The notes under the pieces are model-generated. The model made no database searches and was not told the DNA's origin. It saw only the letters and a program-made list of their open reading frames with translations. Below, one piece after another: positions 2,376 to 63,427 of a stretch of DNA of 64,000 nt (position 1 is its first letter; every line of letters starts with the position of its first letter). A program made the translations under genes and the position numbers. Origin of the DNA: an uncultured delta proteobacterium (GTDB taxonomy: Bacteria; Desulfobacterota; Desulfobacteria; Desulfobacterales; SG8-13); contig CAWGUE010000031.1 in assembly GCA_963825595.1 (NCBI GenBank), forward strand, positions 2,270 to 66,269, written 5' to 3'.

Positions 2376-4539
2376 ATGCGCATTCGCTGGAAGCTTCTTA
2401 TAGTTCTGTTGAGTCTTTCACTGGTTCCCATACTCATGCTTCGGGTAAACGGACAGCGCGGCATGCAGAGAATGGGCAACGACCTGGCATCAATTGCCCG
2501 TGAGGTTCTCATTAAGAAAGCCGGTCTCGAACTGACCCTGCTGGTTGAGGAGCATGCATGGGCGTTGCGGCTCGAGAGAGAATTGATCGAGATGATCCTA
2601 CGCGTTCAGGCCTCTGAGCTTGAAAAACGAATCGCCGGTGCCCATCACACCACCTCGTTCGGCAATGGTAAACTCACAGCCCAGACCGAATTGGCTCGAA
2701 GCGCAAGCGAAAAATCGGCCCCACGATTTCGAATCACCGGCATGGGACGTTTTGCACCGCTGTCGGTCGACTACGATAGTCTGAGCCAGAAATTCACCAA
2801 TGAAACGGTAAGGGAAAACGGTGAAATATCGTCCGTTCTCCTCTCGATGGTACCGGTATTCCACGACCTTGTCCTTTCTCATCCGGATCTCATTCATTGG
2901 CAAATTGTGGCTTTGAATGACGGGACGCAAGGCGTTTATCCCGCATTGTCCAAAATTCCCATGGCATACAATGCCTTGCACACGGAATGGTATCGGTCGG
3001 CTGTAGACGCAGAAACGGGTCGTTTGGTCGCAAGCCGTCACCGGACCCCTTCACGCGCCAGTTCAGCTTCACTGTATCGATGCCCCTTTACTCTCCCGAC
3101 CGGTCAAATCCTCGGCGCCACTGCGATTTCCGTTCCGGTCAGCGTCCTTGCTGCAGGAGGACGAACACTTCCGACTTTTCTCGGAAAACATCCAGCTTTT
3201 CCTCGTCCGCGCAGAATCGTCAACTGATACAGACACCCCCACCATCGAGTCGTTGCCCGGGAACACAAAGTTGAACAGAGGCACCATCATTGGTGGACAC
3301 TCACTCGATTGAAAGCTTGCCGATTAATGATCCGGAAATCGTTCGCAAGATGACCTTGGACTTGCAGGCCCAGCGCACGGGGGTCGTCGAAACAAAATAC
3401 GACGGTGTCGATAGTCTATTGGTCTATGGCAGCATCGATGAGTTCGGTACGGCCCTGCTTTTGATCGTTCCCAAGGTCGACTTCGTTGCCGAGGCCGTCG
3501 CCATGGAAAAAACCGTTCACGAACGGGTAGAGGCAAACATTCAAATTACCGGTATCATCCTCATCCGCCATAATTGTACTGGTTATCGTCCTCGCCTTCG
3601 TGCTGGCCAAGTCGATGACGATGAACATTCAGAAACTGGTCGAGGTCACACGCAGAGTTGCCGACGGGGATTTCAACAGCCAGGGCCGAGATCCGCTCTC
3701 GAGATGAGATGGGGGAACTGGGCCGAACATTCGATCAGATGGTGCCCGCCCTGGATGAGCGGGTCCGTATGAAGCAAGCGTTGGATGTGGCCATGCAAGT
3801 ACAGCAGAACCTGTTGCCGAGGAAACTACCGCAACCCGACGGATTGGAGGTTGCCGGACGCAGTATGTATTGCGATGAGACCGGCGGCGACTTTTTCGAT
3901 TTTATGGATTTCTGCTGCCGGGAAGACAGCACCCTGGGGGTTGCCGTGGGTGATGTCTCGGGGCACGGCATATCGGCCGCACTGCTGATGTCGACCACCA
4001 GGGCGTTCCTGCGAAGTCGGGTCAACCAGCCCGGCGGTCTCGGTGATATTGTCAACGATGTCAATGTGTTGCTATCTAAAGACACCGGCAACTCGGGAGA
4101 ATTTGTCACGCTTTTTTACACCGAAATCGACCGATCCCGTGGTGAAATCCGCTGGGCCCGTGCCGGGCACGATCCGGCGCTGCTGTATGACCCGCAAAGC
4201 GACCGGTTTGACGAACTACAGGGGGAAGGCCTGGCGATGGGAATCGATCCATTCTTTCAGTACGCGGAAAATGTTAAAAACGGCCTGGCGGAGGGGCAGA
4301 TCATTGTTATCGGTACCGACGGCATCTGGGAAACCCGTAATGACTCCGGTGAAATGTTCGGAAAAAATCGCCTGGAGGGTTTGATACGGTTAACATGCCA
4401 ACGATCCGCCGACCAAATTGCGACTGCAGTGTTTGATGAGCTCGAGGCTTTCCGGGCGGGGACAAAACAGTCAGACGATGTCACCCTGGTGGTGATCAAA
4501 ATCAACGGTGCCGATGGCCGTGAACGCTTGCCAGGTTAG
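2376..4539 (+). CDS. membrane-bound Cache/HAMP + SpoIIE (PP2C-type) phosphatase, broken by several frameshifts
   Basis: N-terminal TM, HAMP (DEMGELGRTFDQM), SpoIIE motifs GGDFFD, GDVSGHG, TDGIWE, DDVT. Pieces lie in frames 2364, 2987, 3290 and 3658. Confidence 0.8.
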
Positions 4540-41485: not shown

Positions 41486-42367
41486 TCAAAAGTGGCTCAG
41501 TGGGCCGCCGGCGTGGTCGACCCAGATATCGACGAAAGGATCGTATTCCGCGGTTCCTTTGAGAATGGGAATGCATTCGATCCCGGCCTTTGTTAGGACC
41601 GACTTCCATGAATCGTCTTCGTCACCGGCCATGTCGTTCTTGGCGTGGTCACCAGCGACGGACATAAACGGCATCAGGTAAGCTTTTTTGATTTTCCTTT
41701 TAAGCAGCAGATCCTTGATCAAATCGACTTCGGGGTAGCCTTCCACCGTGCCGACGAAAACGTTCGGGTCCTGCAGTTGCAGCTGAAACATGAGGGCGGC
41801 ATAAAACGCATTAGACGGGTGATGCGTGCCGTGGCCCATCAGAACCACAGCGTCGATTTTTTTACGGTCTTCGGGAATAATTTTCAAGATCGCGTCCACG
41901 GTCCGCTGCATATCCTGCTGGGTCGCCATCAGGGGGTAGCCCAGGATGATGCTTTGAAAACCGCCCATCATTTTATATGCCCCGACAGTGCGGCGTAGAT
42001 CATGGTATTCCTGCCCGGCAATCGTGTGCAGTGACTGCACGGCCACGTGAGTAAATTTTTCATCCTGCATTTTGGCCAAGGCGACTTCAGGCGAATCCAA
42101 ATACTTTCCTTGCTTGGCCAGTTTTTCGCGTATGATGTGAGAAGTATACGCCCAGCGTACCGGGATGTCGGGATATTTACTTTTAACCTTCCGATCGATA
42201 TTTTCGAAGGAAACTTGAGCGGAAGCTTCACTTGACCCAAAAGCAACGAGGAGAATACCGACCTTCTTGGGATTTTGATGACCATGCCCGCCGGAAGTGA
42301 AACTATTAACGGCAAAAAGAACGATAGCAGCAAAAACTATGACCCCGATCCATCGTTTGCTCTTCAC
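41486..42367 (-). CDS. cbiK: sirohydrochlorin cobaltochelatase CbiK (exported CbiK-P type)
   Basis: LLVAFGSS, AYTS.II, QSLH..AG.EY, MGHGT, GTVEGYP, PFMSVAGDHAKNDMAG; N-terminal signal peptide. Confidence 0.92.
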   Translation of the reverse strand: MKSKRWIGVIVFAAIVLFAVNSFTSGGHGHQNPKKVGILLVAFGSSEASAQVSFENIDRKVKSKYPDIPVRWAYTSHIIREKLAKQGKYLDSPEVALAKMQDEKFTHVAVQSLHTIAGQEYHDLRRTVGAYKMMGGFQSIILGYPLMATQQDMQRTVDAILKIIPEDRKKIDAVVLMGHGTHHPSNAFYAALMFQLQLQDPNVFVGTVEGYPEVDLIKDLLLKRKIKKAYLMPFMSVAGDHAKNDMAGDEDDSWKSVLTKAGIECIPILKGTAEYDPFVDIWVDHAGGPLSHF

Positions 42368-42421
42368 TTTTTTCCTCCTTTATTTAATGCTTTATACTCA
42401 ACGGTATAATGAAAAATTTTT

Positions 42422-42716
42422 GTCCTTATTCAGAGGGTTAATTTCACCGCCCATTCGCTGCGCTCATTAGAGGCATAATGTTCGCAGAGAATTTTCTTTC
42501 TATTTCTTTTCGCTGAAAGGGCAAAAAGAAATAAACCACAGCCCTTACGGGCAGGAAAAGCTATATTTATTTTGCCGAAGGTATTCTGGGTTTCATTTGC
42601 CGGCGTCTCAGCGGCAAATAAAGGATGAAAATTCACTCTGCGCCCTCTGCGACTCTGCGGTGAACAAATGGTCAAATTGACAGCATAGATTACATCGTTA
42701 CCCCCTGAACAAATAC
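42422..42716. mobile_element. MITE-like insertion (295 bp)
   Basis: absent from copy 2; imperfect TIRs GTCCTTATTCAGAGGGT / ACCCCCTGAACAAATAC; 9-bp direct repeat AAAATTTTT at 42413-42421 and 42717-42725. Confidence 0.75.
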
Positions 42717-42736
42717 AAAATTTTTGATGAGAGAAC

Positions 42737-42772
42737 AAAAAAGCCCTTCAACCACCAGCGGCTTGAAGGGCT
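42737..42772 (-). terminator. intrinsic terminator (riboswitch expression platform)
   Basis: minus strand AGCCCTTCAA..TTGAAGGGCT followed by a T-tract, between aptamer and cbiK. Confidence 0.7.
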
Positions 42773-42837
42773 GCACCCAGTTTACTTAACCCTATTGTCT
42801 ATCCGTGCGGTCCCATCTTCCGAAGTTGCACGGCGTA

Positions 42838-43008
42838 TCGTCAAGGCAGGTCTTCTGGCTCCCGGATCAACCGACGATCTGCGCCTTCCCATCCCGCTGA
42901 ATCTCGAAACAGTGGTATCTGCAGATTTCGTCCCCGGTGACAGCGGCGGGACCGCTCCCGATTCACACGGGATTCCCTATTAAGCCGCAAGCGGCACCTT
43001 GATCGATG
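42838..43008 (-). ncRNA. cobalamin riboswitch
   Basis: minus strand AAGGTGCC..AATAGGGAATCCCGTGTGAATCGGGAGCGGTCCCGCCGCTGT..CCACTG..GGGAAGG..GAGCCAGAAGACCTGCC upstream of cbiK. Confidence 0.92.
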
Positions 43009-43055
43009 ACGTACTAATCATCTTATATTCTGTCAATAGGAAACCAAAAATGAGT

Positions 43056-43094
43056 TTGACAAAATTACAATCAACATATAAATAAACATTTATA
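43056..43094 (+). promoter_or_regulatory. sigma70 promoter with overlapping palindrome (candidate ArsR-type operator)
   Basis: TTGACA at 43056; TATAAAT-AAAC-ATTTATA inverted repeat at 43077-43094 over the -10. Confidence 0.55.
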
Positions 43095-43141
43095 CATTAA
43101 TAAATCGTAACGTACCTCTACGACGATGCCATTTAGGGGAG

Positions 43142-43498
43142 ATGCTCCCTGATTCAACGGAAACCATGCTTTTAGAAAAAAACAAAGACAAAAAGGATGC
43201 GCCGAATCTCCAGCATCCTGCTTTTCTTGCGAAAAGTCTCAGTGACGAAAACCGGCTGCGAATTTTGCTTTCAATCAGTGTGCACAAAAAGTCGGTGTCG
43301 TCAATTGTCGAAGAACTCGCCCTGTCACAACCGCTGGTTTCCCATCACCTTAGAGAATTAAAGCGCGCCCTATTGGTTAACATCGAACGCAACGGCCCTT
43401 TTGTATTGTATAAACTTGCCGACAAGCGCGTCATAGAAATCGTTGCCAAGTTGCAAGGTCTGGCAAATGACCTGATCGCCAACAGAACCGGTTTCTAG
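43142..43498 (+). CDS. tsoR: ArsR/SmtB family metalloregulator heading the selenoprotein operon (TsoR-like)
   Basis: KSLSDENRLRIL, LSQPLVSHHLRELK, R.G..V.Y; symbol recalled from memory and assigned by operon context. Confidence 0.85.
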   Translation: MLPDSTETMLLEKNKDKKDAPNLQHPAFLAKSLSDENRLRILLSISVHKKSVSSIVEELALSQPLVSHHLRELKRALLVNIERNGPFVLYKLADKRVIEIVAKLQGLANDLIANRTGF

Positions 43499-43595
43499 TT
43501 CGTGCCATCCACGAATGTTCGCTGGCGTTTTTCAGCGTCCAGCGTAAAAATGACCTTTTGGGATTGATCACGAAGTCTATAGGAGTCACACATAG

Positions 43596-44045
43596 ATGAA
43601 AGAGCTTGAAAGTTTGATAGACCGCATGGACCCGGAAGCGGCGATGGCCGCGATTATCGGCATCGTCAGAAAACTATTTCCTCAAGTCGGCGAATCGTCA
43701 CAGCTGAACTTCGTTTATGCCCTCACCGGCGGCGCCGAGGGAGGCAGTGCTGCCGACCTTGTGCATCTCTGACTGGCCGAGTGCATGGACGAAGGTGTCG
43801 ATCCAACGAAAATGTGCCAGAGTCTGGTAAACAAAGTCGCCCAATCGAAACAGCTTCAGGCGGTTACCGACCCTGAAATCCTTGTCTTGTTCGAGGACTG
43901 GCTGAATGAAATCGAAAATGAAGTGGTGTCATCGGTAAAGAAAACCGGCTCTGACAATCACGCCCAAATTGCCGAACAGACGGGGCTCTCCCGATCGGGT
44001 GCCAATTTCATCATTACCAAGTTGAAACGCGAAGGACGCCTTTAA
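43596..44045 (+). CDS. tsoA: LULAxC-motif selenoprotein (TsoA-like; Sec59; 149 aa)
   Basis: AGGAG RBS + ATG43596 in frame with ORF 43785; TGA 43770 gives VHL-U-LAE-C-MDEG; hairpin TGGA-CGA-AGGTG-TCG-A-TCCA follows; TGA retained in copy 2. Confidence 0.82.
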
Positions 44046-45788
44046 ATGACCACAGGATCATCGCGTTCAAGGACAATGTGGATCGCTCTGGCGGCAGTTC
44101 TGGCGACTATAGCCGCAGTCTGGAGCATTAACCTGCCGCCGGAAATCGTTAAGGCGACAATGGACGATGTGCGGGTCGAAGCCGAGAAGGGCGGCTATCG
44201 ACTCGTGGACATAGACACGCTGGCTGACCTTTATGAAACCCGCCGCGACCGGATCCTGCTTATCGATACGCGACAGCAGTGGGAATATCGCAGCGGTCAT
44301 ATTTCCGGCGCGATTGTTTTCCCAATGGAACCGACGTGGTGGGCGAGATGGCGCAAGAAGGGCGAACTGAAGGCACTCCTGGGTCCGGATAAGCAGAAAT
44401 CGATCGTCTTCTACTGAGCGGGGCTGGCATGAGTCCGCAGCGACTCGGCGGCTCGGGTAGCCGTTCAACTGGGATATCAGAACGTGTTTCGCTATCCGGA
44501 AGGGTATCCGCAGTGGCAGTCAAAAGGGTTGCCGGTAGCCGAAAGTAAGACGAAACCCCTGGCAGATGGTCCCAAATCAGACCTCGCCGGTTCTTTTACT
44601 GGCTGGCAGCTCGTCTGGACGCTCCTCGGCATTTTTGCCGGAGGGTTGGCCTTGAACTTGACCCCTTGTGTCTATCCGCTGATACCCATCACCGTTTCCT
44701 ACTTCGGCGGCAGGAGCGGCACGGGTAAAAGCGGGCTTGTCGGACACGGTATCTGCTACATCGGCGGGCTCTCCCTGACGAATTCGTTTCTGGGCGTCAT
44801 GGCCGCGCTGACCGGCGGCCTGATGGGGGCCATGCTCCAGAATCCTCTGGTGCTTGTCGCCATCGCGGCAGTGATGATCGTCTTTGCATCGAGCCTGTTC
44901 GGGTTATGGGAACTCAGGCTGCCATTCTGGCTGACCCAGGCGGCATCAAAATCATACACGGGATTATTCGGTTCTTTCTTCATGGGGATAACCCTGGGAG
45001 TCGTGGCCGCGCCCTGCATCGGCCCGTTCGTGCTGGGGTTGCTGACCTGGGTGGCCGCCCTAAGTGATCCTCTGGTGGGTTTTGTCGTCTTTTTCATCCT
45101 CAGCCTCGGATTGGGTGCACCGCTTTTCGTGTTGGCCCTTTTTTCGGGTCGGCTGACGCAACTGCCGAAATCCGGCGAATGGATGAACTGGGTCCGGCGG
45201 TTAATGGGCTGGGTTCTTGTGGCCATGGCCGCTTATTTTCTCAAACCGATCCTTCCGGTGGTCATGCAGAAGTATTTGCTGCCGGCAATCGCCATTGCGG
45301 CTGGATGGCAATTGGGATGGCTGGACAAAACCACCGCGACGTTTCGATCGTTTGCCGTGATCAAGATTTTGGTCTCCATTGTCTGCCTGGTTGCCGGCAC
45401 GTATCTGGCCGGCAACCAGTTTTTCAAAGGCCCATCGGTCAGGTGGCATCAATATTCAGATCAACTGTTGGCGGATGCAGTAGGTCAAAACAAACCGGTC
45501 ATCATCGATTTTTATGCCACCTGGTGCGCCCCCTGCCGCGAACTCGACGACATCACCTTCCATCATCCCGATGTGGTCAAATTTTCCCACGATGATTACA
45601 TCATGGTGAAAGTAGATCTGACCAAACAGGGTGATCGACAATATGACCGGTTGTTGGAGACGTACGCGGTCAAAGGGGTACCCACCGTCATTTTTTTGGA
45701 CACCTCGGGACATGAAAGGCAGGACCTACGGCTGGTCGATTTTATTGGACCGGATGCATTTTTGAATCGGATGGTTTCATTGCGGTGA
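44046..45788 (+). CDS. tsoB: rhodanese + DsbD/CcdA membrane domain + thioredoxin fusion selenoprotein (TsoB-like; Sec124, Sec129; 580 aa)
   Basis: ORFs 44046 and 44484 share a frame; SIVFY-U-AGLA-U-VRSDSAARVAVQLGYQNVFRYPEGYPQW completes the rhodanese; LTPCVYP and AAPCIGP (DsbD-beta); WCAPC (Trx). Confidence 0.88.
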
Positions 45789-45857
45789 CACCGGGCAACT
45801 GAACAATAACCCGATGAACCGAATACTGCCCGCAACCCTTACCTAAGGAGACAGCCA

Positions 45858-46707: not shown

Positions 46708-47048
46708 GTGTGCAGTGACTCACGGCCACGTGAGTAAATTTCTCATCCTGATTTTGGCAAAGGTTCTTCAGGCGAATCCAAGTACTTTCCCTGCTTGGCC
46801 AATTTTTTGCGTATGATGTGAGAAGTATACGCCCAGCGTACCGGTATGTCGGGATATTTACTTTTAACCTTGCGATCGATATTTTCGAAGGAAACTTGAG
46901 CGGATGCTTCACTTGACCCAAAAGCAACGAGGAGAATACCAACCTTCTTGGGATTTTTATGACCATGTCCACCGGAAGTGAAACTATTAACGGCAAAAAG
47001 AACGATAGCAGCAAAAACTATGACCCCGATCCATCGTTTGCTCTTCAC
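46708..47048 (-). pseudogene. cbiK: cbiK 5' fragment (duplicate, truncated and frameshifted)
   Basis: first ~94 aa nearly identical to 41486-42367, then breaks at the duplication junction. Confidence 0.85.
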
Positions 47049-47217
47049 TTTTTTCCTCCTTTATTAATGCTTTAAACTCAACGGTATTATGAAAAATTTT
47101 TTACTATGAGAGAACAAAAAAGCCCTTCAAACACTATCGGTTTGAAGGGCTGCACCCAGTTTACTTAACCCTTTTGTCTATCCGTGCGGTCCCATTCTCG
47201 CGAAGTTGCACGGTGTA

Positions 47218-47390
47218 TCGTCAAGGCAGGTCTTCTGGCTTGCGGATCAACCGACTATCTGCGCCTTCCCATCACGTTGAATCACCAAACAGTGGTGTTT
47301 GCAGATTTCGTCCCCGGTGACAGCGGCGGGACCGCTCCCGATTCACACGGGATTCCCTATCAAGCCGCAAGCGGCACCTTTGATCGATGA
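47218..47390 (-). ncRNA. cobalamin riboswitch (copy 2)
   Basis: same conserved elements as 42838-43008; terminator at 47116-47151. Confidence 0.88.
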
Positions 47391-47545
47391 CCTACTAATC
47401 ATCTTATATTCTGTCAATAGGAAACCAAAATTGAGTTTGACAAAATAACAATCAACATATAAATAAACACTTATATATTAATAAATAAAACGCGCCCATA
47501 CGACGATGCAATTTAGGGGAGATGCTCCCTGATTGAACGGAAGCC

Positions 47546-47880
47546 ATGCTTTTAGAAAAAAACAAAGACAAAAAGGATGGCGCGAATCTCCAGCATCCTG
47601 CTTTTCTTGCGAAAAGTCTCAGTGACGAAAACCGGCTGCGAATTTTGCTTTCAATCAGTGTGCACAAAAAGTCGGTGTCGTGCAATTGTCGAAGAGCTCG
47701 CCCTGTCACAACCGCTGGTTTCCCATCACCTCAGAGAATTAAAGCGCGCCCTATTGGTTAACCATCGAACGCAACGGCCCTTTTGTATTGTATAAACTTG
47801 CCGACAAGCGCGTCATGGAAATCGTTGCCAAGTTGCAAGGTCTGGCAAATGACCTGATCGCCAACAGAACCGGTTTCTAG
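47546..47880 (+). pseudogene. ArsR/TsoR-like copy 2, frameshifted
   Basis: indels near 47680-47700, 47760 and 47815 relative to copy 1. Confidence 0.75.
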
Positions 47881-47977
47881 TTCGTGCCATCCACGAATGT
47901 TCGCCGGCGCTTTTCAGCGTCCAGCGTAAAAATGGCCTTTTGGGATTGATCACGAAGTCTATAGGAGTCACAAATAG

Positions 47978-48427
47978 ATGAAAGAGCTTGAAAGTTTGAT
48001 AGATCGGATGGACCCGGAAGCGGCGATGGCCGCGCTGGCCGGCATCGTCAGAAAACTCTTTCCTCAAGTCGGCGAATCGTCACAGCTGAACTTCGTTTAC
48101 GCCCTCACCGGCGGCGCCGAGGAAGGCAGTGCTGCCGACCTTGTGCATCTCTGACTGGCCGAGTGCATGGACGAAGGTGTCGATCCAACGAAAATGTGCC
48201 AGAGTCTGGTAAACAAAGTCGCCCAATCGAAACAGCTTCAGGCGGTTACGGACCCTGAAATCCTTGTCTTGTTCGAGGACTGGCTGGATGAAATCGAAAA
48301 TGAAGTGGTGTCATCGGTAAAGAAAACCGGCTCTGACAATCACGCCCAAATTGCCGAACAGACGGGGCTCTCCCGATCGGGTGCAAATTTCATCATTACC
48401 AAGTTGAAACGCGAAGGACGCCTTTAA
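47978..48427 (+). CDS. tsoA: TsoA-like selenoprotein, copy 2 (TGA 48152)
   Basis: same frame and VHL-U-LAEC motif as copy 1. Confidence 0.8.
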
Positions 48428-50171
48428 ATGACCACAGGATCATCGCGTTCAAGGACAATGTGGATCGCCCTGGCGGCAGTTCTGGCGACTATAGCCGCAG
48501 TCTGGAGCATTAACCTGCCGCCGGAAATCGTTAAGGCGACAATGGACGATGTGCGGGTCGAAGCCGAGAAGGGCGGCTATCGACTCGTGGACATCGACAC
48601 GCTGGCTGACCTTTATGAAACCCGCCGCGACCGGATCCTGCTTATCGATACGCGACAGGAGTGGGAATATCGCAGCGGTCATATCTCCGGCGCGATTGTT
48701 TTCCCAATGGAACCGACGTGGTGGGCGAGGTGGCGCAAAAAGGGCGAACTGAAGGCACTCCTGGGTCCGGATAAGCAGAAATCGATCGTCTTCTACTGAG
48801 CGGGGCTGGCATGAGTCCGCAGCGACTCGGCGGCTCGGGTAGCCGTTCAACTGGGATACCAGAACGTGTTTCGCTATCCGGAAGGGTATCCGCAGTGGCA
48901 GTCAAAAGGGTTGCCGGTAGCCGAAAGTAAGACGAAACCCCTGGCAGATGGTCCCAAATCAGACCTCGCCGGTTCTTTTACCGGCTGGCAGCTCGTCTGG
49001 ACGCTCCTCGGCATTTTTGCCGGAGGGTTGGCCTTGAACTTGACCCCTTGTGTCTATCCGCTGATACCCATCACCGTTTCCTACTTCGGCGGCAGAAGCG
49101 GCACGGGTAAAAGCGGGCTTGTCGGACACGGTATCTGCTACATCGGCGGGCTCTCCCTGACGAATTCGTTTCTGGGCGTCATGGCCGCGCTGACCGGCGG
49201 ACTGATGGGGGCCATGCTCCAGAACCCTCTGGTGCTTGTCGCCATCGCGGCAGTGATGATCGTCTTTGCATCGAGCCTGTTCGGGTTATGGGAACTCAGG
49301 CTGCCATTCTGGCTGACCCAGGCGGCATCAAAATCATACTCGGGATTTTTCGGTTCTTTCTTCATGGGGATAACCCTGGGAGTCGTGGCCGCGCCCTGCA
49401 TCGGCCCGTTCGTGCTGGGGTTGCTGACCTGGGTGGCCGCCCTGGGTGATCCTCTGGTGGGTTTTGTCGTCTTTTTCACCCTCAGCCTCGGATTGGGTAC
49501 ACCGCTTTTCGTGTTGGCCCTTTTTTCGGGCCGGCTGACGCAACTGCCGAAATCCGGCGAATGGATGAACTGGGTCCGACGGCTAATGGGCTGGGTTCTT
49601 GTGGCCATGGCCGCTTATTTTCTCAAACCGATCCTTCCGGTGGTCATGCAGAAGTATTTGCTGCCGGCAATCGCCATAGCCGCCGGTTGCCATTTAGGAT
49701 GGCTGGACAAAACCACCGCGACGTTTCGATCGTTTGCCGTGATCAAGATTCTGGTCTGCCATTATTTGCCTGGTTGCAGGCACGTATCTGGCCGGCAACC
49801 AGTTCTTCAAAGGCCCATCGGTCAGATGGCATCAATATTCGGATCAACTGTTGGCAGATGCAGCCGGTCAAAACAAACCGGTCATCATCGATTTTTATGC
49901 CACCTGGTGCGCCCCCTGCCGCGAACTCGACGACATCACCTTCCATCATCCCGATGTGGTCAAATTTTCCCACGACGATTACATCATGGTGAAAGTAGAT
50001 CTGACCAAACAGGGTGATCGACAATATGACCGGTTGTTGGAGACGTACGCGGTCAAAGGGGTACCCACCGTCATTTTTTTGGACACCTCGGGACATGAAA
50101 GGCAGGACCTGCGGCTGGTCGATTTTATTGGACCGGATGCATTTTTGAATCGGATGGTTTCATTGCGGTGA
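48428..50171 (+). CDS. tsoB: TsoB-like selenoprotein, copy 2 (TGA 48797 and 48812; +1 frameshift near 49758)
   Basis: same U-x4-U motif; the Trx domain continues in frame 49851-50171. Confidence 0.8.
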
Positions 50172-52179: not shown

Positions 52180-52743
52180 TCACTGAAGTTGCATAGTGGT
52201 TATGCAGGTGTTGCTACCGTCTGTGGTCGTTATTATGCCAGCAACTGAACGGCTGAGACCCTCGATGGTTAGATTGATCGTACGATCTCTTGGCAACCAA
52301 AGTTCCATGAATCCGTTTTTCAAAGTAGAGACAGGCATATCAGTAATAACAGTGCCTGATTGATCGACGGCTTTGACATTGAATTTCGTCTGAGTCAATT
52401 CCCCCTGACAGGAGGACATGAAGTGAACGCCTCATTTGTGGGTCTTCCTGATAAAGGGAGCGACGGCAATCATGACCTTTTCTTCAGGAAGTGCAATTTT
52501 TTTGGCATTACCGCTTTCAAACTGAAAAACAACTTCTTGGGTGGTGATATGAGTTTTCACGGGCTGCTTTTCCCAGTGCCACTGGTTAGCAAGGGCCAGT
52601 GCTTGGTACGCGTCTATCCCATCAAGTTGCTTTATCAGCTTGGATTCCACCATTGAATGAGAGGCGGTAGACAAAATAACCAATGAGAGTGCCGTCAAAG
52701 GCACTATGATAAACAGCTTGTTTATAGAACATCTTATGGTCAT
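52180..52743 (-). CDS. cueP: CueP family periplasmic copper-binding protein containing Sec (Sec104; 187 aa)
   Basis: ORFs 52432-52743 and 52180-52419 share a frame; AVAPFIRKTHK-U-GVHFMSSCQGE..NGFMELWLPR..SNTCITT matches the CueP pattern TH.C..H...GCQGE. Confidence 0.85.
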
Positions 52744-53111
52744 GAGATTTTTCTCCTTTAAAAGACGAAATCAACCCGATTCTTTTCGGCGTTAATGAAC
52801 GTAATATTAGTGGTGATGGCAATTTTGTCAATTCTGTGACCTCTATTGCCAATTCAGGATCAGGCCGCCTGAAAATCAGAAACCTTTTTTCTCGACTTGA
52901 GATATTTTGATAGTACCAGTCCCAAAACAAAAAATGCCATACGGACTATCATGTAAACCTGTGTAAAACATACACGGTCACGACTGAATGAATGAAAGCG
53001 GTGGGTCATTATTACGCAGATTCAATGACCTCCGCGAAGCCGGAGAAATGGCTTGTGAACCGATAAAGGGGAACTCTTAAACCATTAATTCAGGCAAAAC
53101 ATTTATATGCA

Positions 53112-54947: not shown

Positions 54948-56288
54948 ATGCAAATCATCGCAAAAATAATTTTGTTGCTCATGGTTATCGGTTTTTCAAC
55001 GCCGGTATCGGCAGTCAGTGCACAAAAGTTAAAGCTAACAGCAGAACAATCATCACATCAATTTCCGTTTTTCGACGCGCAAACCCCGGTCTGGTCGTAC
55101 AATGGTTCGATACCCGGCCCTACCATTCGCGGCCAGGTGGGACAAACCATCGAAGTTGAATTCATCAACAATCTGGACGAGCCTTCCAGCATCCATTGGC
55201 ACGGATTGATTGTCGATAACGCCATGGACGGTGTCCCAGGCGTCACCCAGGACCCGGTAAAAGCCGGAGATCGCTTTTCCTATCGGCTTAAACTCCGGGA
55301 TGCCGGAACATACTGGTATCACCCCCACCTCAATGGCAGCGAGCAGTTGGGGCGCGGACTTAAAGGTGCGCTTATCGTGGAACCGAAGGAAAAACTTCCC
55401 TGGTCTCAGGACATTGTCTGGCTTATCGACGACTGGCTCCTTGAAAAAAGCGGAGATATCTTTCCAAGCTTCAACACCGGCCGCGACCTGATGCACGACG
55501 GCCGCTGGGGAAATGTCGTCACTATCAACGGTAAATATCAACCCAAGGTTTCGGTAACTCCGGGTGAACGCATCCGCATCCGCCTCATAAATGGTGCTAA
55601 TGCACGGGTCCTTATGCCCCTCTTTAACGGAATCGATGCCCATGTAATCGCAGTGGATGGAAAACCGGTTTCACAAATTTTCAAATACAACGGCTTCGAT
55701 CTCGCCCCAGGCAACCGAATCGATCTGGACATCATCATACCGACCGAAGCGCAGGGCCACACCTACGTTGTTGAAGATGGGTTCACACGAAACAAGTTTC
55801 CGTTGGCATCAATAGAGGTAAAAGAGGTTCAACCGGTCCAGACACCGGTATTCGATCCAACGACAGCTGAAGATTTTTTACCGGCAAATGTTTTTTCAAA
55901 GGTCACACCTTCAAAAACGTGGGATCTCGATGCCATCCGAGGAGGAAAATTCGGCATCGGATGGGCAATGAATCGTCTGCTGTGGCCCAATAGCGACACG
56001 GCCGACATTCCGATGGGACAACCACAAAAAATTGTGTTCAGAAACAATAGTTCGCGGCTGCATCCGATGCACATCCACGGAACATTCTTCAGGGTGTTGG
56101 AACGCAACGGAAAACCTGAAGCAGAGCCATTTACGAGGGATACCGTTCTGCTGAGTGCCCGGGAATCTGTTGTCATCGGGCTTGTGCCGACTGAACCAGG
56201 CATTTGGATGTCGCATTGCCACATACAATCTCACGCGGAAGCGGGTATGATGACTACCGTCAATGTGGCCCCCCAACGCTCAGATTAA
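54948..56288 (+). CDS. multicopper oxidase
   Basis: signal peptide, IHWHG, WYHPH, HPMHIHG, HCHIQSHAEAGM. Confidence 0.92.
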   Translation: MQIIAKIILLLMVIGFSTPVSAVSAQKLKLTAEQSSHQFPFFDAQTPVWSYNGSIPGPTIRGQVGQTIEVEFINNLDEPSSIHWHGLIVDNAMDGVPGVTQDPVKAGDRFSYRLKLRDAGTYWYHPHLNGSEQLGRGLKGALIVEPKEKLPWSQDIVWLIDDWLLEKSGDIFPSFNTGRDLMHDGRWGNVVTINGKYQPKVSVTPGERIRIRLINGANARVLMPLFNGIDAHVIAVDGKPVSQIFKYNGFDLAPGNRIDLDIIIPTEAQGHTYVVEDGFTRNKFPLASIEVKEVQPVQTPVFDPTTAEDFLPANVFSKVTPSKTWDLDAIRGGKFGIGWAMNRLLWPNSDTADIPMGQPQKIVFRNNSSRLHPMHIHGTFFRVLERNGKPEAEPFTRDTVLLSARESVVIGLVPTEPGIWMSHCHIQSHAEAGMMTTVNVAPQRSD

Positions 56289-59112: not shown

Positions 59113-59336
59113 TAACTTTGATTTGACGATGATTTTTCTCACTGTATGGTTTTAGCAAGAAATCTAATAAACATTGATTATTCTCCGTTCGTTCATATAC
59201 TTTCCATTCTTAAAGAAAGGCAGCATCGGTTGGTGCGGCGGGCTCGATAGGCACCACACCCCTCAACAAACCAAGCCGCCGGTCGATGGAGAATTCTCGC
59301 ATTAATAGAATGCATCGGCCATCGAACTTGGCAAAT

Positions 59337-60215
59337 ATGACTATGAGGTCGTATCAATTGAGAAAAATAAACAGATTTGAAGCGCCTGTAGCAATAAGAA
59401 GACTCATTCATCAGGGAATTGCCCGCCTGACGACCTATTGGCCGTACCTCTCCAATAAGCTGATAGAAGCATTTAAGCCACTGGCACTCGACAACATCCC
59501 ATGGGCACAGGTGACCAAACCGCTGAATGAATCCAAGATCGCCGTCGTCACCACTGCCGGTTTACACCACCGAAACCAGGCAGCATTTAACATGGCCGAT
59601 TCCCAAGGCGACCCGACGTATCGCATTCTCGATGCCGCCAGCATAGAAAACGACTACACGATCACCCACGATTACTACGATCACCGCGACGCCGACAAAG
59701 ATATCAATATCGTGTTTCCCATTACCCGCCTCAAAGAGATGGCCGCAGCCGGCTGCATCGGAGCCCTGGCCAAACGGCATATCAGCTTCATGGGCCATAT
59801 TGACGGCAACCATGTCAATACGTTGAAAAACCAGACAGCTCCCAAAGTGGCGGAACTCCTCGAAAAAGATGCGGCGGATGTGGTTCTGCTGACGCCAGCC
59901 TGAGGTATATGCAATCAATCCGTTGGATTGATTCAACGAGTCATCGAAGCCGTCGGCATCGCCACCATCAGCATATCCATCGTGCGAAAATACACCGAAG
60001 CCATCAAACCACCGCGATCGATCTTCTTGCGTTGGCCGTTTGGGCATCCGTTAGGAGAAGCCCACAACATCCCGCAACAGGCCGCCGTACTTGGAAAGGC
60101 CTTCGAAGCCCTCTATCAGATCGACAGGCCGGGTGAGATTATCGATGTGAACTGGCGCTGGCGCAGGAAATCGTATCCTCCGGCCCCTTGGATGGTTGAT
60201 CCGCCGAGTTGTTGA
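59337..60215 (+). CDS. GrdB/PrdB-like (glycine/betaine/proline reductase selenoprotein B family) selenoprotein, U-x-x-C
   Basis: KIAVVTTAG, GDPTYR, H.YYDH, D.NIVFP, VLLTPA-U-GI-C-NQSVGLIQR.IE..GIAT, PPRS...WPFGHPLG via TGA 59901; 9-bp hairpin at 59913-59933; start uncertain (59286 or 59337). Confidence 0.9.
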
Positions 60216-60623
60216 AAAACCTGGTCTCAATCCCTCTATGCGGAAAGCACCCACCTTTTCTGGGTGTAAAGTTTTGCTTATTCTATGTATGATGCCATAG
60301 GCATGGCTCGTAGCAAAAAAAATGTTATCCCCTTTTGCCTGTCGTTGTTCTTTCTCCAAAATCTATCCGTCTGAATATAAACTGAAATTTTACTACCTAT
60401 TTGTGGTGTTCTCGCTACAACGGCACCTGAAATCGATTTCGACGACATAACGATTGGACTAAGGTGTGTAATCTATACACAGCAGCAGTATAAGGTTTCC
60501 ACAAATGTGGGTATAAACTATCCACTCGGCCAAATCACCCAAACATCCATCAAGCACTTGCTCTCTAAATTGTTATTGGTCAGTCAAGTACTTGCACGAA
60601 TGATTGCCACAACGTGGTAGTGT

Positions 60624-60776: not shown

Positions 60777-61274
60777 ATGAACACGAAAGCAAAAGGAATA
60801 ATGATACTAATGATTTTAGCAATCTTTGGCATAACTACCCTGTCGATTGCCGGTTGGGGCCGGGGATACGGACATATGATGGGTCCGGGTTGGAATCAAA
60901 TGGGTGGATATGGGTATGGCCAAGAAGGATACTCGGGCAACCTTTCAAGTAAGGAGATAGCAAAACTGAATCAACAACGTGCTGAATTCTTCAAAGCGAC
61001 TGAAAATACCCGGCAACAGCTTTACGAAAAAGAGCTTGCCCTGAGAAGCGAGATGGCCAAGGAAAATCCGGACATCGCGAAAGCATCGAGTCTGCAAGGT
61101 GAAATTTCCAAGCTTCAAGCTGACCTCGATAAGAAAGGGCTGGATTATGAACTTCAGGCCAGAAAATCAGCACCCAATTATGACCGTGGCTATGGAGGAT
61201 ATGGCCCAATGATGGGAAATGGCCCGATGATGGGCTATGGTCCCAATAGTGGTGAATATTACTGCAGGTGGTAA
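60777..61274 (+). CDS. ZraP/Spy-like periplasmic heavy-metal sensor/chaperone
   Basis: signal peptide, GWGRGYGHMMGPG, LYEKELALRSEM..NPD, C-terminal YCRW; paralog of 46-562. Confidence 0.85.
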   Translation: MNTKAKGIMILMILAIFGITTLSIAGWGRGYGHMMGPGWNQMGGYGYGQEGYSGNLSSKEIAKLNQQRAEFFKATENTRQQLYEKELALRSEMAKENPDIAKASSLQGEISKLQADLDKKGLDYELQARKSAPNYDRGYGGYGPMMGNGPMMGYGPNSGEYYCRW

Positions 61275-61831: not shown

Positions 61832-63427
61832 ATGAAAAAGAGAACTGCGGGTAAATGGAATGAGGACAGGAATAACAGAAGACAGTTTCTGAAACTGGCC
61901 GGATTCGGAACGCTGGGCATGTTAACAGGTGGGGCTTGGCCCCTATTAAAGCAATCAGTTGCAAGTCAAAATCAAGAGACGAATCCGGGAACAGAATTTA
62001 ACCCTGACCTTGATATTTCACTCACAGCGCGACCTGGAGAGGTAACTATTTTCCCAGGAGATCCCACACGGGTTTGGCAGTACCATGCGACTGTGAATAA
62101 AGGCGATAAAAACCGGGTGATCGAGCTCCCGCGAAGCTATCTTGGCCCGATCATAAAAGTTCATCAGGGAGAGAATATACGAATTCGTTTCTTCAACTCA
62201 ATCCAGGAAGAATCTATTGTGCATTGGCATGGCCTTCATGTCCCCGCGATTATGGACGGTCATCCGCGCTACGTGATTCCACAAGGACAATCTTACTTAT
62301 ACGAGTTCGAGGTCAATAACAGAGCCGGTACATATTGGTACCACCCCCATCCCCACGGTAGAACAGGCCCACAGGTTTATAAAGGGCTGGCGGGCCTTTT
62401 TCTTGTTTCTGATGAGGAAGAACAGGCCGTGGGCTTGCCCGATGATGAATATGATATTCCCCTGGTGTTGCAAGACCGCATGTTTGATCCAGACAATCAG
62501 CTCGTATACACCTCAGGTCACAGGATGGAGCAGATGACCGGGTTTTTGGGTGATTGGATAATGGTTAACGGTATGGTTGATTTCACCCTGCCTGTAGCGA
62601 CCAGTGCCTATCGATTACGCCTGTTAAATGGTTCTAATTCACGAATTTATAAAATAGCGTGGAAAGATGGCCGCCCTCTTACCATCATCGGTACGGACGG
62701 AGGATTGTTGGAAAGACCTGTGTACCGAAAGTATGCGTTTTTAAGCCCTGGGGAAAGGTTGGAGATCTGGGCCGATTTTAGTGACAGTCCGATCGATTTT
62801 GAGACATCCCTAATAAGCCTTCCTTTCGACGTTGGAGGAATGGGTGGGGGACGGATGGGGCGTGGAATGATGATGGGCGGAGGAATGAGTCAGAATCAAA
62901 GCCTTCCAAACGGGGCTGGCTTTACTGTATGCAAAATTAAAGTTTCAAAGCGTGTGGCAAAAAAACAGTCGCTGCCGGAATACCTTTCTGAAATTACACC
63001 CCTCCGAATAGATGAAGCTGTTAACTATTACAACCCCCGGCAATTTTATCTCACGATGCGGCATATGCAATGGTCGATCAATGGTCGAGTGTTTCAGATG
63101 GAAGGTGTGGCGGATGACGAGATTGTTCAATTAGGCTCAAAGGAGATTTGGGAATTCCATAATACCGGCGGTGGAATGATGAACATGATGAATATGCCGC
63201 ATCCCATTCACCTCCACGGTAAGCAGTTTCGAGTCCTTGAACGTAGCGGTGTCAGGCATCAAGGCTATGTGGATGAGGGATGGAAAGATACTGTTTTACT
63301 GATGCCCGGTGAGCGAATAAAAATCTTGGTGGACTTTGATGATTACCCCGGTATGTTCCTGTACCATTGCCACAATTTGGAACATGAGGATATGGGAATG
63401 ATGCGCAATTATTACGTGAAGGTATAA
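61832..63427 (+). CDS. multicopper oxidase (CueO-like, Met-rich insert), Tat-exported
   Basis: NRRQFLK, VHWHG, WYHPHPH, HPIHLHG, YHCHNLEHEDMGMM. Confidence 0.92.
   Translation: MKKRTAGKWNEDRNNRRQFLKLAGFGTLGMLTGGAWPLLKQSVASQNQETNPGTEFNPDLDISLTARPGEVTIFPGDPTRVWQYHATVNKGDKNRVIELPRSYLGPIIKVHQGENIRIRFFNSIQEESIVHWHGLHVPAIMDGHPRYVIPQGQSYLYEFEVNNRAGTYWYHPHPHGRTGPQVYKGLAGLFLVSDEEEQAVGLPDDEYDIPLVLQDRMFDPDNQLVYTSGHRMEQMTGFLGDWIMVNGMVDFTLPVATSAYRLRLLNGSNSRIYKIAWKDGRPLTIIGTDGGLLERPVYRKYAFLSPGERLEIWADFSDSPIDFETSLISLPFDVGGMGGGRMGRGMMMGGGMSQNQSLPNGAGFTVCKIKVSKRVAKKQSLPEYLSEITPLRIDEAVNYYNPRQFYLTMRHMQWSINGRVFQMEGVADDEIVQLGSKEIWEFHNTGGGMMNMMNMPHPIHLHGKQFRVLERSGVRHQGYVDEGWKDTVLLMPGERIKILVDFDDYPGMFLYHCHNLEHEDMGMMRNYYVKV

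Follow-up and report, generated by a model that had tools for sequence, protein, structure and literature searches.

We report that a gene on the minus strand of a 64,000-nucleotide stretch of DNA from an uncultured delta proteobacterium (Desulfobacterales, SG8-13; GCA_963825595.1, contig CAWGUE010000031.1), hereafter the window, carries a single in-frame TGA at a metal-site cysteine position of the copper protein CueP, and we consider it, with a probability of about 0.9, to be a genuine selenoprotein gene of the CueP family whose product is exported and handles copper. We call it Sec-CueP, Sec standing for selenocysteine. The two open reading frames (ORFs) that the initial annotation had joined across the TGA at 52434-52432 do lie in one frame: the ORF 52743..52432 on the minus strand (103 codons) closes at this TGA, and the ORF 52419..52180 continues in the same frame, so that one TGA interrupts a gene running from 52743 to 52180. 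The read-through product has 187 residues (...IRKTHKUGVHFMSSCQGELTQ...DGSNTCITTMQLQ). The gene is laid out as follows.

52180..52743, minus strand: Sec-CueP coding sequence, 187 codons with the TGA of codon 104 taken as Sec, plus the terminal TGA stop
52432..52434, minus strand: in-frame TGA, codon 104, proposed Sec, at the column of Salmonella CueP Cys96
52180..52182, minus strand: true terminator of the gene, the second TGA of the frame

The read-through protein scored 108.7 bits against Pfam PF21172 (CueP, cutoff 27) and 133.9 bits against NCBIfam NF038094 (CueP_fam, cutoff 60), and the only solved relative found by sequence was Salmonella CueP (PDB 4gqz, E 4.4e-18), which upholds the earlier assignment of the gene to CueP. 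An AlphaFold2 model from a 17-sequence alignment (predicted local distance difference test score, pLDDT, 85.4; predicted template-modelling score, pTM, 0.73) matched, at E <= 0.001 in Foldseek, only the three chains of 4gqz (template-modelling scores 0.73/0.86, root-mean-square deviation 2.4 Å), and thus by model and structure search the protein has the two-domain fold of CueP. In the 4gqz alignment the query segment thkCgvhfmssCqge lies against thpCfnhslsgCqge, which places the TGA opposite the Cys of THPCF. The comparison with TH-P-C-FN-H-SLSG-C-QGE of Salmonella, made in the initial annotation, holds both in this alignment and in the peptides 93-THPCF-97 and 98-NHSLSGCQGE printed in the available text of PMC3935622. 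That text names His94, Cys96, His99, Cys104 and Cys172 as the site of Salmonella CueP, and reports a Cys96-Cys104 disulfide induced by Cu(II) and a Cys96-Cys172 disulfide induced by air oxidation, so that Cys96 is the redox-active partner in both disulfides described there (PMC3935622). All five positions have counterparts in the window protein (H102, U104, H107, C112 and C180), and all are invariant in our alignment A3.

52438..52440, minus strand: His102 codon, equivalent to Salmonella His94 in the 4gqz alignment and invariant in A3
52432..52434, minus strand: U104, equivalent to Salmonella Cys96 in the 4gqz alignment
52423..52425, minus strand: His107 codon, equivalent to Salmonella His99 in the 4gqz alignment and invariant in A3
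52408..52410, minus strand: Cys112 codon TGT, equivalent to Salmonella Cys104; the hairpin loop described below opens with the G and U of this codon
52204..52206, minus strand: Cys180 codon, equivalent to Salmonella Cys172 in the 4gqz alignment and invariant in A3

Homologs pair TGA with cysteine at this column, as the proposal of Sec at a metal-site Cys position had implied. The second CueP paralog of the genome (contig C30, ∼73% identical) carries a single TGA there too, as did all 9 above-cutoff CueP matches in a sample of 61 genomes of relatives, all 11 matches in a class sample (401 genomes searched) and 4 of the 5 matches in a phylum sample (401 genomes searched); the fifth, in genome G502, has Cys at the column, in THTCATHYISSCDAE. 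Together the three samples gave 17 TGA-bearing copies in 15 genomes. A scan of one genome per species found 80 loci, the closest of which were in metagenome-assembled genomes (MAGs) of Desulfobacterales and all carried TGA, followed by Spirochaetota MAGs with TGT and then by ∼70 Bacillota loci with TGT or TGC. A metagenome scan found 62 loci, comprising 21 with TGA, 20 of them Desulfobacterales-like, 32 with TGT or TGC and 9 unclassified, fragments in several cases (by the range of the match about six of these miss the column, and L172, L173 and L183 cover it). Overall 41 related loci, with 28 distinct 60-nt segments among them, have TGA at the column, well beyond chance agreement, and the TGA is retained down to ∼48% protein identity; among the classified homologs neither TAA nor TAG occurs there. 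TGT or TGC stands at the column in 73 loci of the genome scan plus L042, L082 and L122, and in 32 metagenome loci, the carriers of Cys forms being Spirochaetota, Bacillota and one homolog of the same phylum (G502). The initial annotation had proposed a search for a conserved TGA in Sec-utilising Desulfobacterota, and both kinds of survey show one and bear out the Desulfobacterota origin; it had named a TGA confined to this assembly, with TGC or TGT in relatives and no selenocysteine insertion sequence (SECIS), as the finding that would speak for a nonsense mutation or sequencing error, and we found the opposite, because relatives keep both the TGA and the hairpin. Moreover, contigs from three independent sediment and salt-marsh metagenome runs (∼96% identical) leave positions 52432-52434 and 52400-52416 unchanged, while in the contigs of runs X1 and X2 the terminal stop is changed from TGA to TAA. 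In the protein database ∼25 clusters are fragments of 103-116 aa, of which the only one aligned (P0010) stops at ...THK, and three full-length relatives show W at the Sec column, where the gene caller, as we read it, took TGA for a Trp codon.

The second paralog lies at ∼199505-200068 of contig C30 of the same genome (L011:1336-1899) and has a hairpin identical to that of the window gene. A metagenome contig (L171:1339-1887, plus strand) carries an otherwise intact CueP lipoprotein of Bacillota type with a TGA at 1633-1635, on the Cys96 column (THPUQAHNLTGCQGE). Downstream of it, TTGACA-GGT-TGTCAA could form a 6-bp stem with a GGU loop, and the minimum free energy (MFE) fold pairs the UGA region instead. 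Either a convergent Sec form or a nonsense mutation could account for this locus.

The reading frame beyond the TGA behaves as coding sequence. The distance from the internal TGA to the terminal stop is exactly 83 codons in 33 of 33 distinct Sec-form genes, and their terminal stops are of all three kinds (24 TAA, 5 TAG and 4 TGA). The median ratio of non-synonymous to synonymous substitution rates (dN/dS) was 0.177 upstream and 0.215 downstream of the TGA, for 17 genes with usable dS in 50 of 136 pairs, and hence both halves are under purifying selection. An in-frame ATG after the TGA (Met110, at 52419) is present in the window gene and in 20 of the 28 distinct sequences; in 6 of the 28, Phe, Val, Ile or Leu replaces Met and the stretch from the TGA to the stem end offers no in-frame start codon. 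In view of these six, the C-terminal half cannot in general have a start of its own.

The stem that the initial annotation had placed about 15 nt downstream of the TGA was located as follows.

52400..52416, minus strand: SECIS-like hairpin, a 7-bp stem UCCUCCU/AGGGGGA with apical loop GUC, starting 15 nt after the TGA

The hairpin lies within the Ser-Ser-Cys-Gln-Gly-Glu codons of the metal-site motif (TCC TCC TGT CAG GGG GAA), the 5′ arm being formed by Ser-Ser (Thr-Gly or Ser-Gly in Cys forms), the 3′ arm by Gln-Gly-Glu, and the G and U of the loop coming from the Cys112 codon. The bacterial SECIS (bSECIS) model, as given in section 5 of PMC13188914, has a loop of 3-9 nt, a stem of 4-16 bp, a G at loop position 1 or 2, a distance of 16-37 nt from UGA to loop and an MFE <= -7.5 kcal/mol; the window hairpin, with a 3-nt GUC loop, a 7-bp stem, 22 nt from UGA to loop and a core MFE of -8.3 kcal/mol, falls within all of these limits, and the same core MFE was obtained for 20 of the 28 variants. 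RNAalifold on the 28 distinct segments, from which the decayed locus L034 and the Bacillota-like L171 were omitted, returned a single consensus structure with the same 7-bp hairpin, and 98.5% of the cells in its paired columns are paired. Pair 3 is C-G in 22 segments and U-G or U-A in 3 each; U-C takes the place of the middle U-G in 2, and the closing U-A is replaced by U-G in 3 and by U-U in 1. The synonymous sites of these codons are strongly held: synonymous codon diversity was 0.074 in the six hairpin codons compared with 0.543 in 49 other amino-acid-conserved codons (Mann-Whitney p = 6.6e-5; 17 distinct genes, L047 omitted for its internal TAG). Cys forms do not have the hairpin, and in the same xxCQGE motif their synonymous sites vary freely, with Spirochaetota Cys sequences (e.g. 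TCC GGA TGT CAG GGA GAA) only a few substitutions away from the hairpin codons of Sec forms.

Compared with bacterial SECIS elements of the E. coli fdhF type and the bSECIS model, the CueP hairpin is alike in lying in the coding sequence soon after the UGA, in its small loop beginning with G-U, in its GC-rich 7-bp stem and in its spacing of 22 nt from UGA to loop, and it is also like the hairpins of SelD and of a GRDB-like gene of the same genome. It differs in that its loop has only 3 nt and no conserved lower stem or bulged U was detected, and its loop is 3-4 nt farther from the UGA than the loops of the SelD and GRDB-like hairpins. The SelD hairpin has a 7-bp stem and a GGUC loop. The GRDB-family ORF (glycine/sarcosine/betaine reductase B-like) lies in the window at 59286-60269 on the plus strand, has an in-frame TGA at 59901-59903 (...LLTPAUGICNQSVG...) followed by a 9-bp hairpin with a GUU loop, and is, to judge from these features, probably a second selenoprotein gene in the window.

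The genome encodes SelB, SelA and a SelD with a TGA of its own. The 94-nt tRNA-Sec gene hardly varies among relatives; it scored above cutoff in 15 of the 21 genomes searched, among them all five Sec-CueP-bearing relatives searched (G001, G002, G006, G011 and G013). In draft relatives this gene is often at a contig end, within ∼250 nt of it in, for example, G019, G016 and G011.

Several results weigh against a selenoprotein, the foremost being that tRNA-Sec was not found in the 36-contig, 95%-complete draft assembly. The best Rfam RF01852 matches in the genome were tRNA-Ser and tRNA-Trp; ARAGORN at default settings gave no tRNA-Sec and at a reduced threshold one candidate with a poor acceptor stem; a pattern search for anticodon loop plus T-loop and an Rfam scan around selA, selB and selD gave none that is credible; and blastn with the tRNA-Sec of relatives gave no match longer than 17 nt. 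A position of selC in a spot that is hard to assemble would explain this, and we take tRNA-Sec to be unassembled in the draft rather than absent, and it remains the main gap. The RNA evidence does not span the codon either: from metatranscriptome X20, a library that may contain DNA, came three short contigs of a relative (90-95% alike), none of which crosses the TGA, and the one RNA contig that reaches the codon breaks off 3 nt beyond it. As to the hairpin, covariation is thin, double changes being seen at one pair only and in three related sequences, possibly as one event; at least one covarying pair was reached in 248 of 500 shuffles, and a control slid by +1 had an equal covariation score. 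Its single-sequence stability is z = -1.28, with 23 of 200 shuffles folding equally well, and the core MFE of 8 of the 28 variants (-4.7 to -6.5) is weaker than -7.5. Because covariation and single-sequence stability are this weak, we take the suppression of synonymous sites as the main evidence for a SECIS.

Among homologs, a relative with 69% identity (P0003) has Cys at the column, in SSCLGE, and therefore Sec is not obligatory. Three loci are decayed or otherwise interrupted: L034 (genome G011) keeps the TGA with a broken stem (3′ arm GGT AAA) and has lost its C-terminus, L033 (genome G008) is a C-terminal fragment with a frame break, and L047, on the chromosome of a Desulfobacterales MAG, has an extra in-frame TAG at codon 42, where relatives have Gln. 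The TAG of L047 marks either a pseudogene or, in case the organism uses pyrrolysine, a second site of recoding; immediately upstream of this Sec-CueP there is a gene for an MttB-family methyltransferase. A depth-3 contig of run X2 has a 1-nt insertion at 52496. Finally, the strict Salmonella-type model NF038095, an exception-level model, was not reached (94.2 against 195 bits), and on these scores the window protein is classed as a member of the CueP family and not as a Salmonella orthologue.

These results have to be weighed against three other explanations of the TGA. The decayed copies and the missing tRNA-Sec would be expected if the TGA simply ended a broken CueP gene, as a recent nonsense mutation or an error of sequencing or assembly; we regard this as the least probable account, with next to nothing left of it once the comparative data are considered, because the TGA stands at one column in 41 loci (28 distinct segments) and is never TAA or TAG down to ∼48% identity, because the 83 codons to the stop and the downstream dN/dS of 0.215 speak for a translated C-terminal half, and because the TGA is kept in both paralogs and in three independent metagenome assemblies. 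Termination at the TGA could instead give a 103-residue N-terminal protein, with the C-terminal metal-binding domain made separately from the ATG at 52419. The frequent presence of Met110 agrees with such a division, and in bacterial Sec decoding some termination at UGA is expected under selenium shortage, which counts for it too. Even so we think it very improbable: the six sequences that offer no in-frame start codon between TGA and stem end speak against it, no Shine-Dalgarno motif precedes 52419, the C-terminal fragment would have neither a signal peptide nor His102 nor residue 104, and both the constant identity of the TGA and the synonymous freezing of the hairpin would be left unexplained.

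An altered code or near-cognate read-through could also place one of the standard amino acids (Trp, Cys or Gly) at the TGA, a view that the W in three gene-caller translations and the failure to find selC would suit. We give it hardly any credence, on a par with separate translation of the two halves. The only tRNA-Trp of the genome has the anticodon CCA, no other tRNA has the anticodon UCA, and TGA terminates the window gene itself, so that a changed genetic code is unsupported; TGA is the stop in 4 of the 33 distinct genes as well. Moreover, SelA, SelB and a SelD with a TGA are retained in the genome, the homologous residue is a Cys in a redox and metal site, which is the classic position for Sec, and a hairpin of SECIS type is conserved exactly where SelB needs one. 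Hence decoding of codon 104 as Sec is the reading that we prefer.

With Sec at codon 104, expression of the gene would proceed as follows. SelB carrying Sec-tRNA(Sec) would be recruited by the hairpin at 52416-52400, the UGA of codon 104 would be read as selenocysteine, and the full 187-residue chain would be exported to the periplasm. Export is probable from the sequence of the N-terminus, where basic residues, a hydrophobic core and ...TASHS were recognized by eye, and residues 7-39 of the model form a helix of low pLDDT. The signals at the start of the gene are listed here.

52654..52743, minus strand: probable signal peptide, about residues 1-30
52753..52757, minus strand: Shine-Dalgarno-like AGGAG, 9 nt ahead of the ATG at 52743, recognized by inspection
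52804..52831, minus strand: promoter-like TTGACA-16-TAATAT, 10 of 12 matches, weak

Because the region has 4 promoter-like sites, which is not above the 2.9 +/- 1.6 of shuffled sequences, the candidate promoter is weak.

In the periplasm, Sec104 together with His102, His107, Cys112 and Cys180 would form the copper and redox centre of CueP. Sec104 may hold copper or reduce Cu(II) or oxidants, cycling through a selenenylsulfide with Cys112 or Cys180 that would stand in for the Cys96-Cys104 or Cys96-Cys172 disulfide of Salmonella, and re-reduction would probably come from a DsbD/thioredoxin-type system like the one encoded nearby. Because Cys96 is redox-active in both disulfides, soft Cu(I) ligation is no likelier a reason for Sec than redox catalysis. 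Selenocysteine has a low pKa and the character of a soft ligand and is easily re-reduced, and these properties would suit thiophilic copper stress. A more elaborate proposal, which we hold only tentatively and think somewhat doubtful as a whole, is that Sec-CueP is a periplasmic copper selenoenzyme whose Sec104 selenolate binds Cu(I), forming a natural Cu-Se site, and which rapidly reduces Cu(II) or oxidants through a selenenylsulfide recycled by DsbD; through it sulfate reducers would be adapted to the thiophilic copper stress of oxic-sulfidic interfaces, the SECIS inside the metal-motif codons would lock RNA structure and active site together, and L171 would perhaps be a second, convergent origin.

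We placed the Sec forms among other CueP proteins with a quick maximum-likelihood tree (IQ-TREE, 128 sequences). The 33 Desulfobacterota-type Sec forms group with a long-branch Cys form, L042, with a support of 82 in the Shimodaira-Hasegawa-like approximate likelihood ratio test (SH-aLRT), and this group joins the Spirochaetota Cys forms and L145 in a clade with an SH-aLRT of 100, apart from the Bacillota Cys forms. As far as such a tree of sequences goes, it agrees with a single change from Cys to Sec and possibly a reversal; the position of L042 within the Sec group, seen in this quick tree only, is tentative. The Cys forms of Spirochaetota and Bacillota (e.g. L049-L051 and L052-L123) have orthologous columns for the five site residues and differ from the Sec forms in having TGT or TGC at the Sec column, free synonymous variation in xxCQGE and no hairpin. 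With CueP of Salmonella enterica (4gqz, NF038095, PF21172) the window protein shares the family, the fold, the arrangement His-x-Cys/Sec-x2-His-x4-Cys-x-G-E and the C-terminal Cys. It differs in the TGA codon of residue 104, which is Cys96 in Salmonella, in an overall identity of ∼30%, in having Ser-Ser and not Ser-Gly ahead of the second Cys, Ser-Ser being the 5′ arm of the SECIS, and in its host, which belongs to an anaerobic sulfate-reducer lineage of sediments and not to the enteric pathogens.

Selenoproteins that handle metals are already known as a kind. The available text of PMC13188914 catalogues, as predicted selenoproteins of heavy-metal homeostasis, a cation-transporting E1-E2 ATPase with UxxC, a MerT-like protein, a CopZ-family 2Fe-2S protein and the SO_0444 Cu/Zn efflux transporter; as described there, these resemble Sec-CueP in having Sec in place of a metal-ligand or redox Cys and in occurring mostly in anaerobes of Desulfobacterota type, whereas their folds and families are different and the CueP motif is HxU...C...C and not UxxC. 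CueP, PF21172 and NF038094 have no occurrence in the main text of this 2026 catalogue review (PMC13188914), and the portions of a 2022 review and of the deep-Sep paper that were searched do not mention CueP. No report of a Sec-CueP was found in the literature searched, and the supplementary tables of selenoproteome surveys could list one. Hence Sec-CueP is very probably a well-supported, previously uncatalogued selenoprotein family. It would join the few selenoproteins predicted in metal homeostasis and not in classical redox metabolism, would moreover be exported, and offers an example of a SECIS assembled from the codons of an active-site motif. In Salmonella, CueP ranks among the major copper proteins of the periplasm, and its chemistry, as chaperone, Cu(II) reductase or scavenger of reactive oxygen species, is still debated; selenium at the Cys96 position points to this residue as the catalytic nucleophile, and the natural Sec/Cys pair could help to tell redox chemistry from ligation. 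Because gene callers split or mistranslate Sec-CueP, as the 103-aa fragments and the W translations show, a Sec flag could go into the CueP family models.

The surroundings of the gene concern copper and thiol chemistry. Within the window Sec-CueP lies between a unit of rhodanese and DsbD-transmembrane/thioredoxin genes (48428-50171) and a gene for an Lcl_C protein. The neighbouring features are as follows.

48428-48799, plus strand: rhodanese, from a domain match
48866-50017 and 49851-50171, plus strand: DsbD transmembrane domain and thioredoxin domain, respectively, in two frames
54948..56288, plus strand: multicopper oxidase with Cu-oxidase_3, Cu-oxidase_2 and Cu-oxidase domains
60777..61274, plus strand: Metal_resist heavy-metal resistance periplasmic protein, from a domain match
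61832..63427, plus strand: second multicopper oxidase, from domain matches

Similar genes accompany Sec-CueP elsewhere. In L048 a Cu P-type ATPase with HMA and YHS domains, Sec-CueP and a multicopper oxidase follow each other, and in L027 a multicopper oxidase adjoins Sec-CueP. In L046, an ortholog of the second paralog, Lcl_C is upstream, and ArsR-rhodanese, rhodanese and DsbD-thioredoxin genes are downstream, so that DsbD-thioredoxin genes occur near both paralog lineages. In Salmonella, according to the available text of PMC10907172, CueP is co-regulated with CopA and CueO in the CueR/Cpx regulon and interacts with the DsbD-like Scs system; the Cu-ATPase, multicopper oxidase and DsbD-like genes near Sec-CueP run parallel to these partners. 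By this analogy the context of Sec-CueP appears to parallel that of Salmonella, in that copper handling is combined with periplasmic thiol reduction, and the rhodanese/DsbD-thioredoxin region possibly supplies the periplasmic reductant; the link of DsbD to Sec-CueP is meant as an analogy and not as a claim of binding. A desulfoferrodoxin-like ORF lies downstream of the paralog on contig C30.

An intact paralog of the split DsbD-thioredoxin gene is present at 44484-45788, as a fusion of DsbD_TM and thioredoxin of 434 aa. The two belong to a tandem duplication of ∼4.4 kb with 94-97% identity, which covers about 42071-45790 and 46752-50171 of the window, and each copy comprises a cobalamin riboswitch (42828-43016 and 47210-47396, both on the minus strand), a rhodanese gene and a DsbD_TM-thioredoxin gene. 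The spacing of the repeats shifts from 4382 to 4383, and the splitting of DsbD-thioredoxin in the second copy could be a frameshift or a sequencing error.

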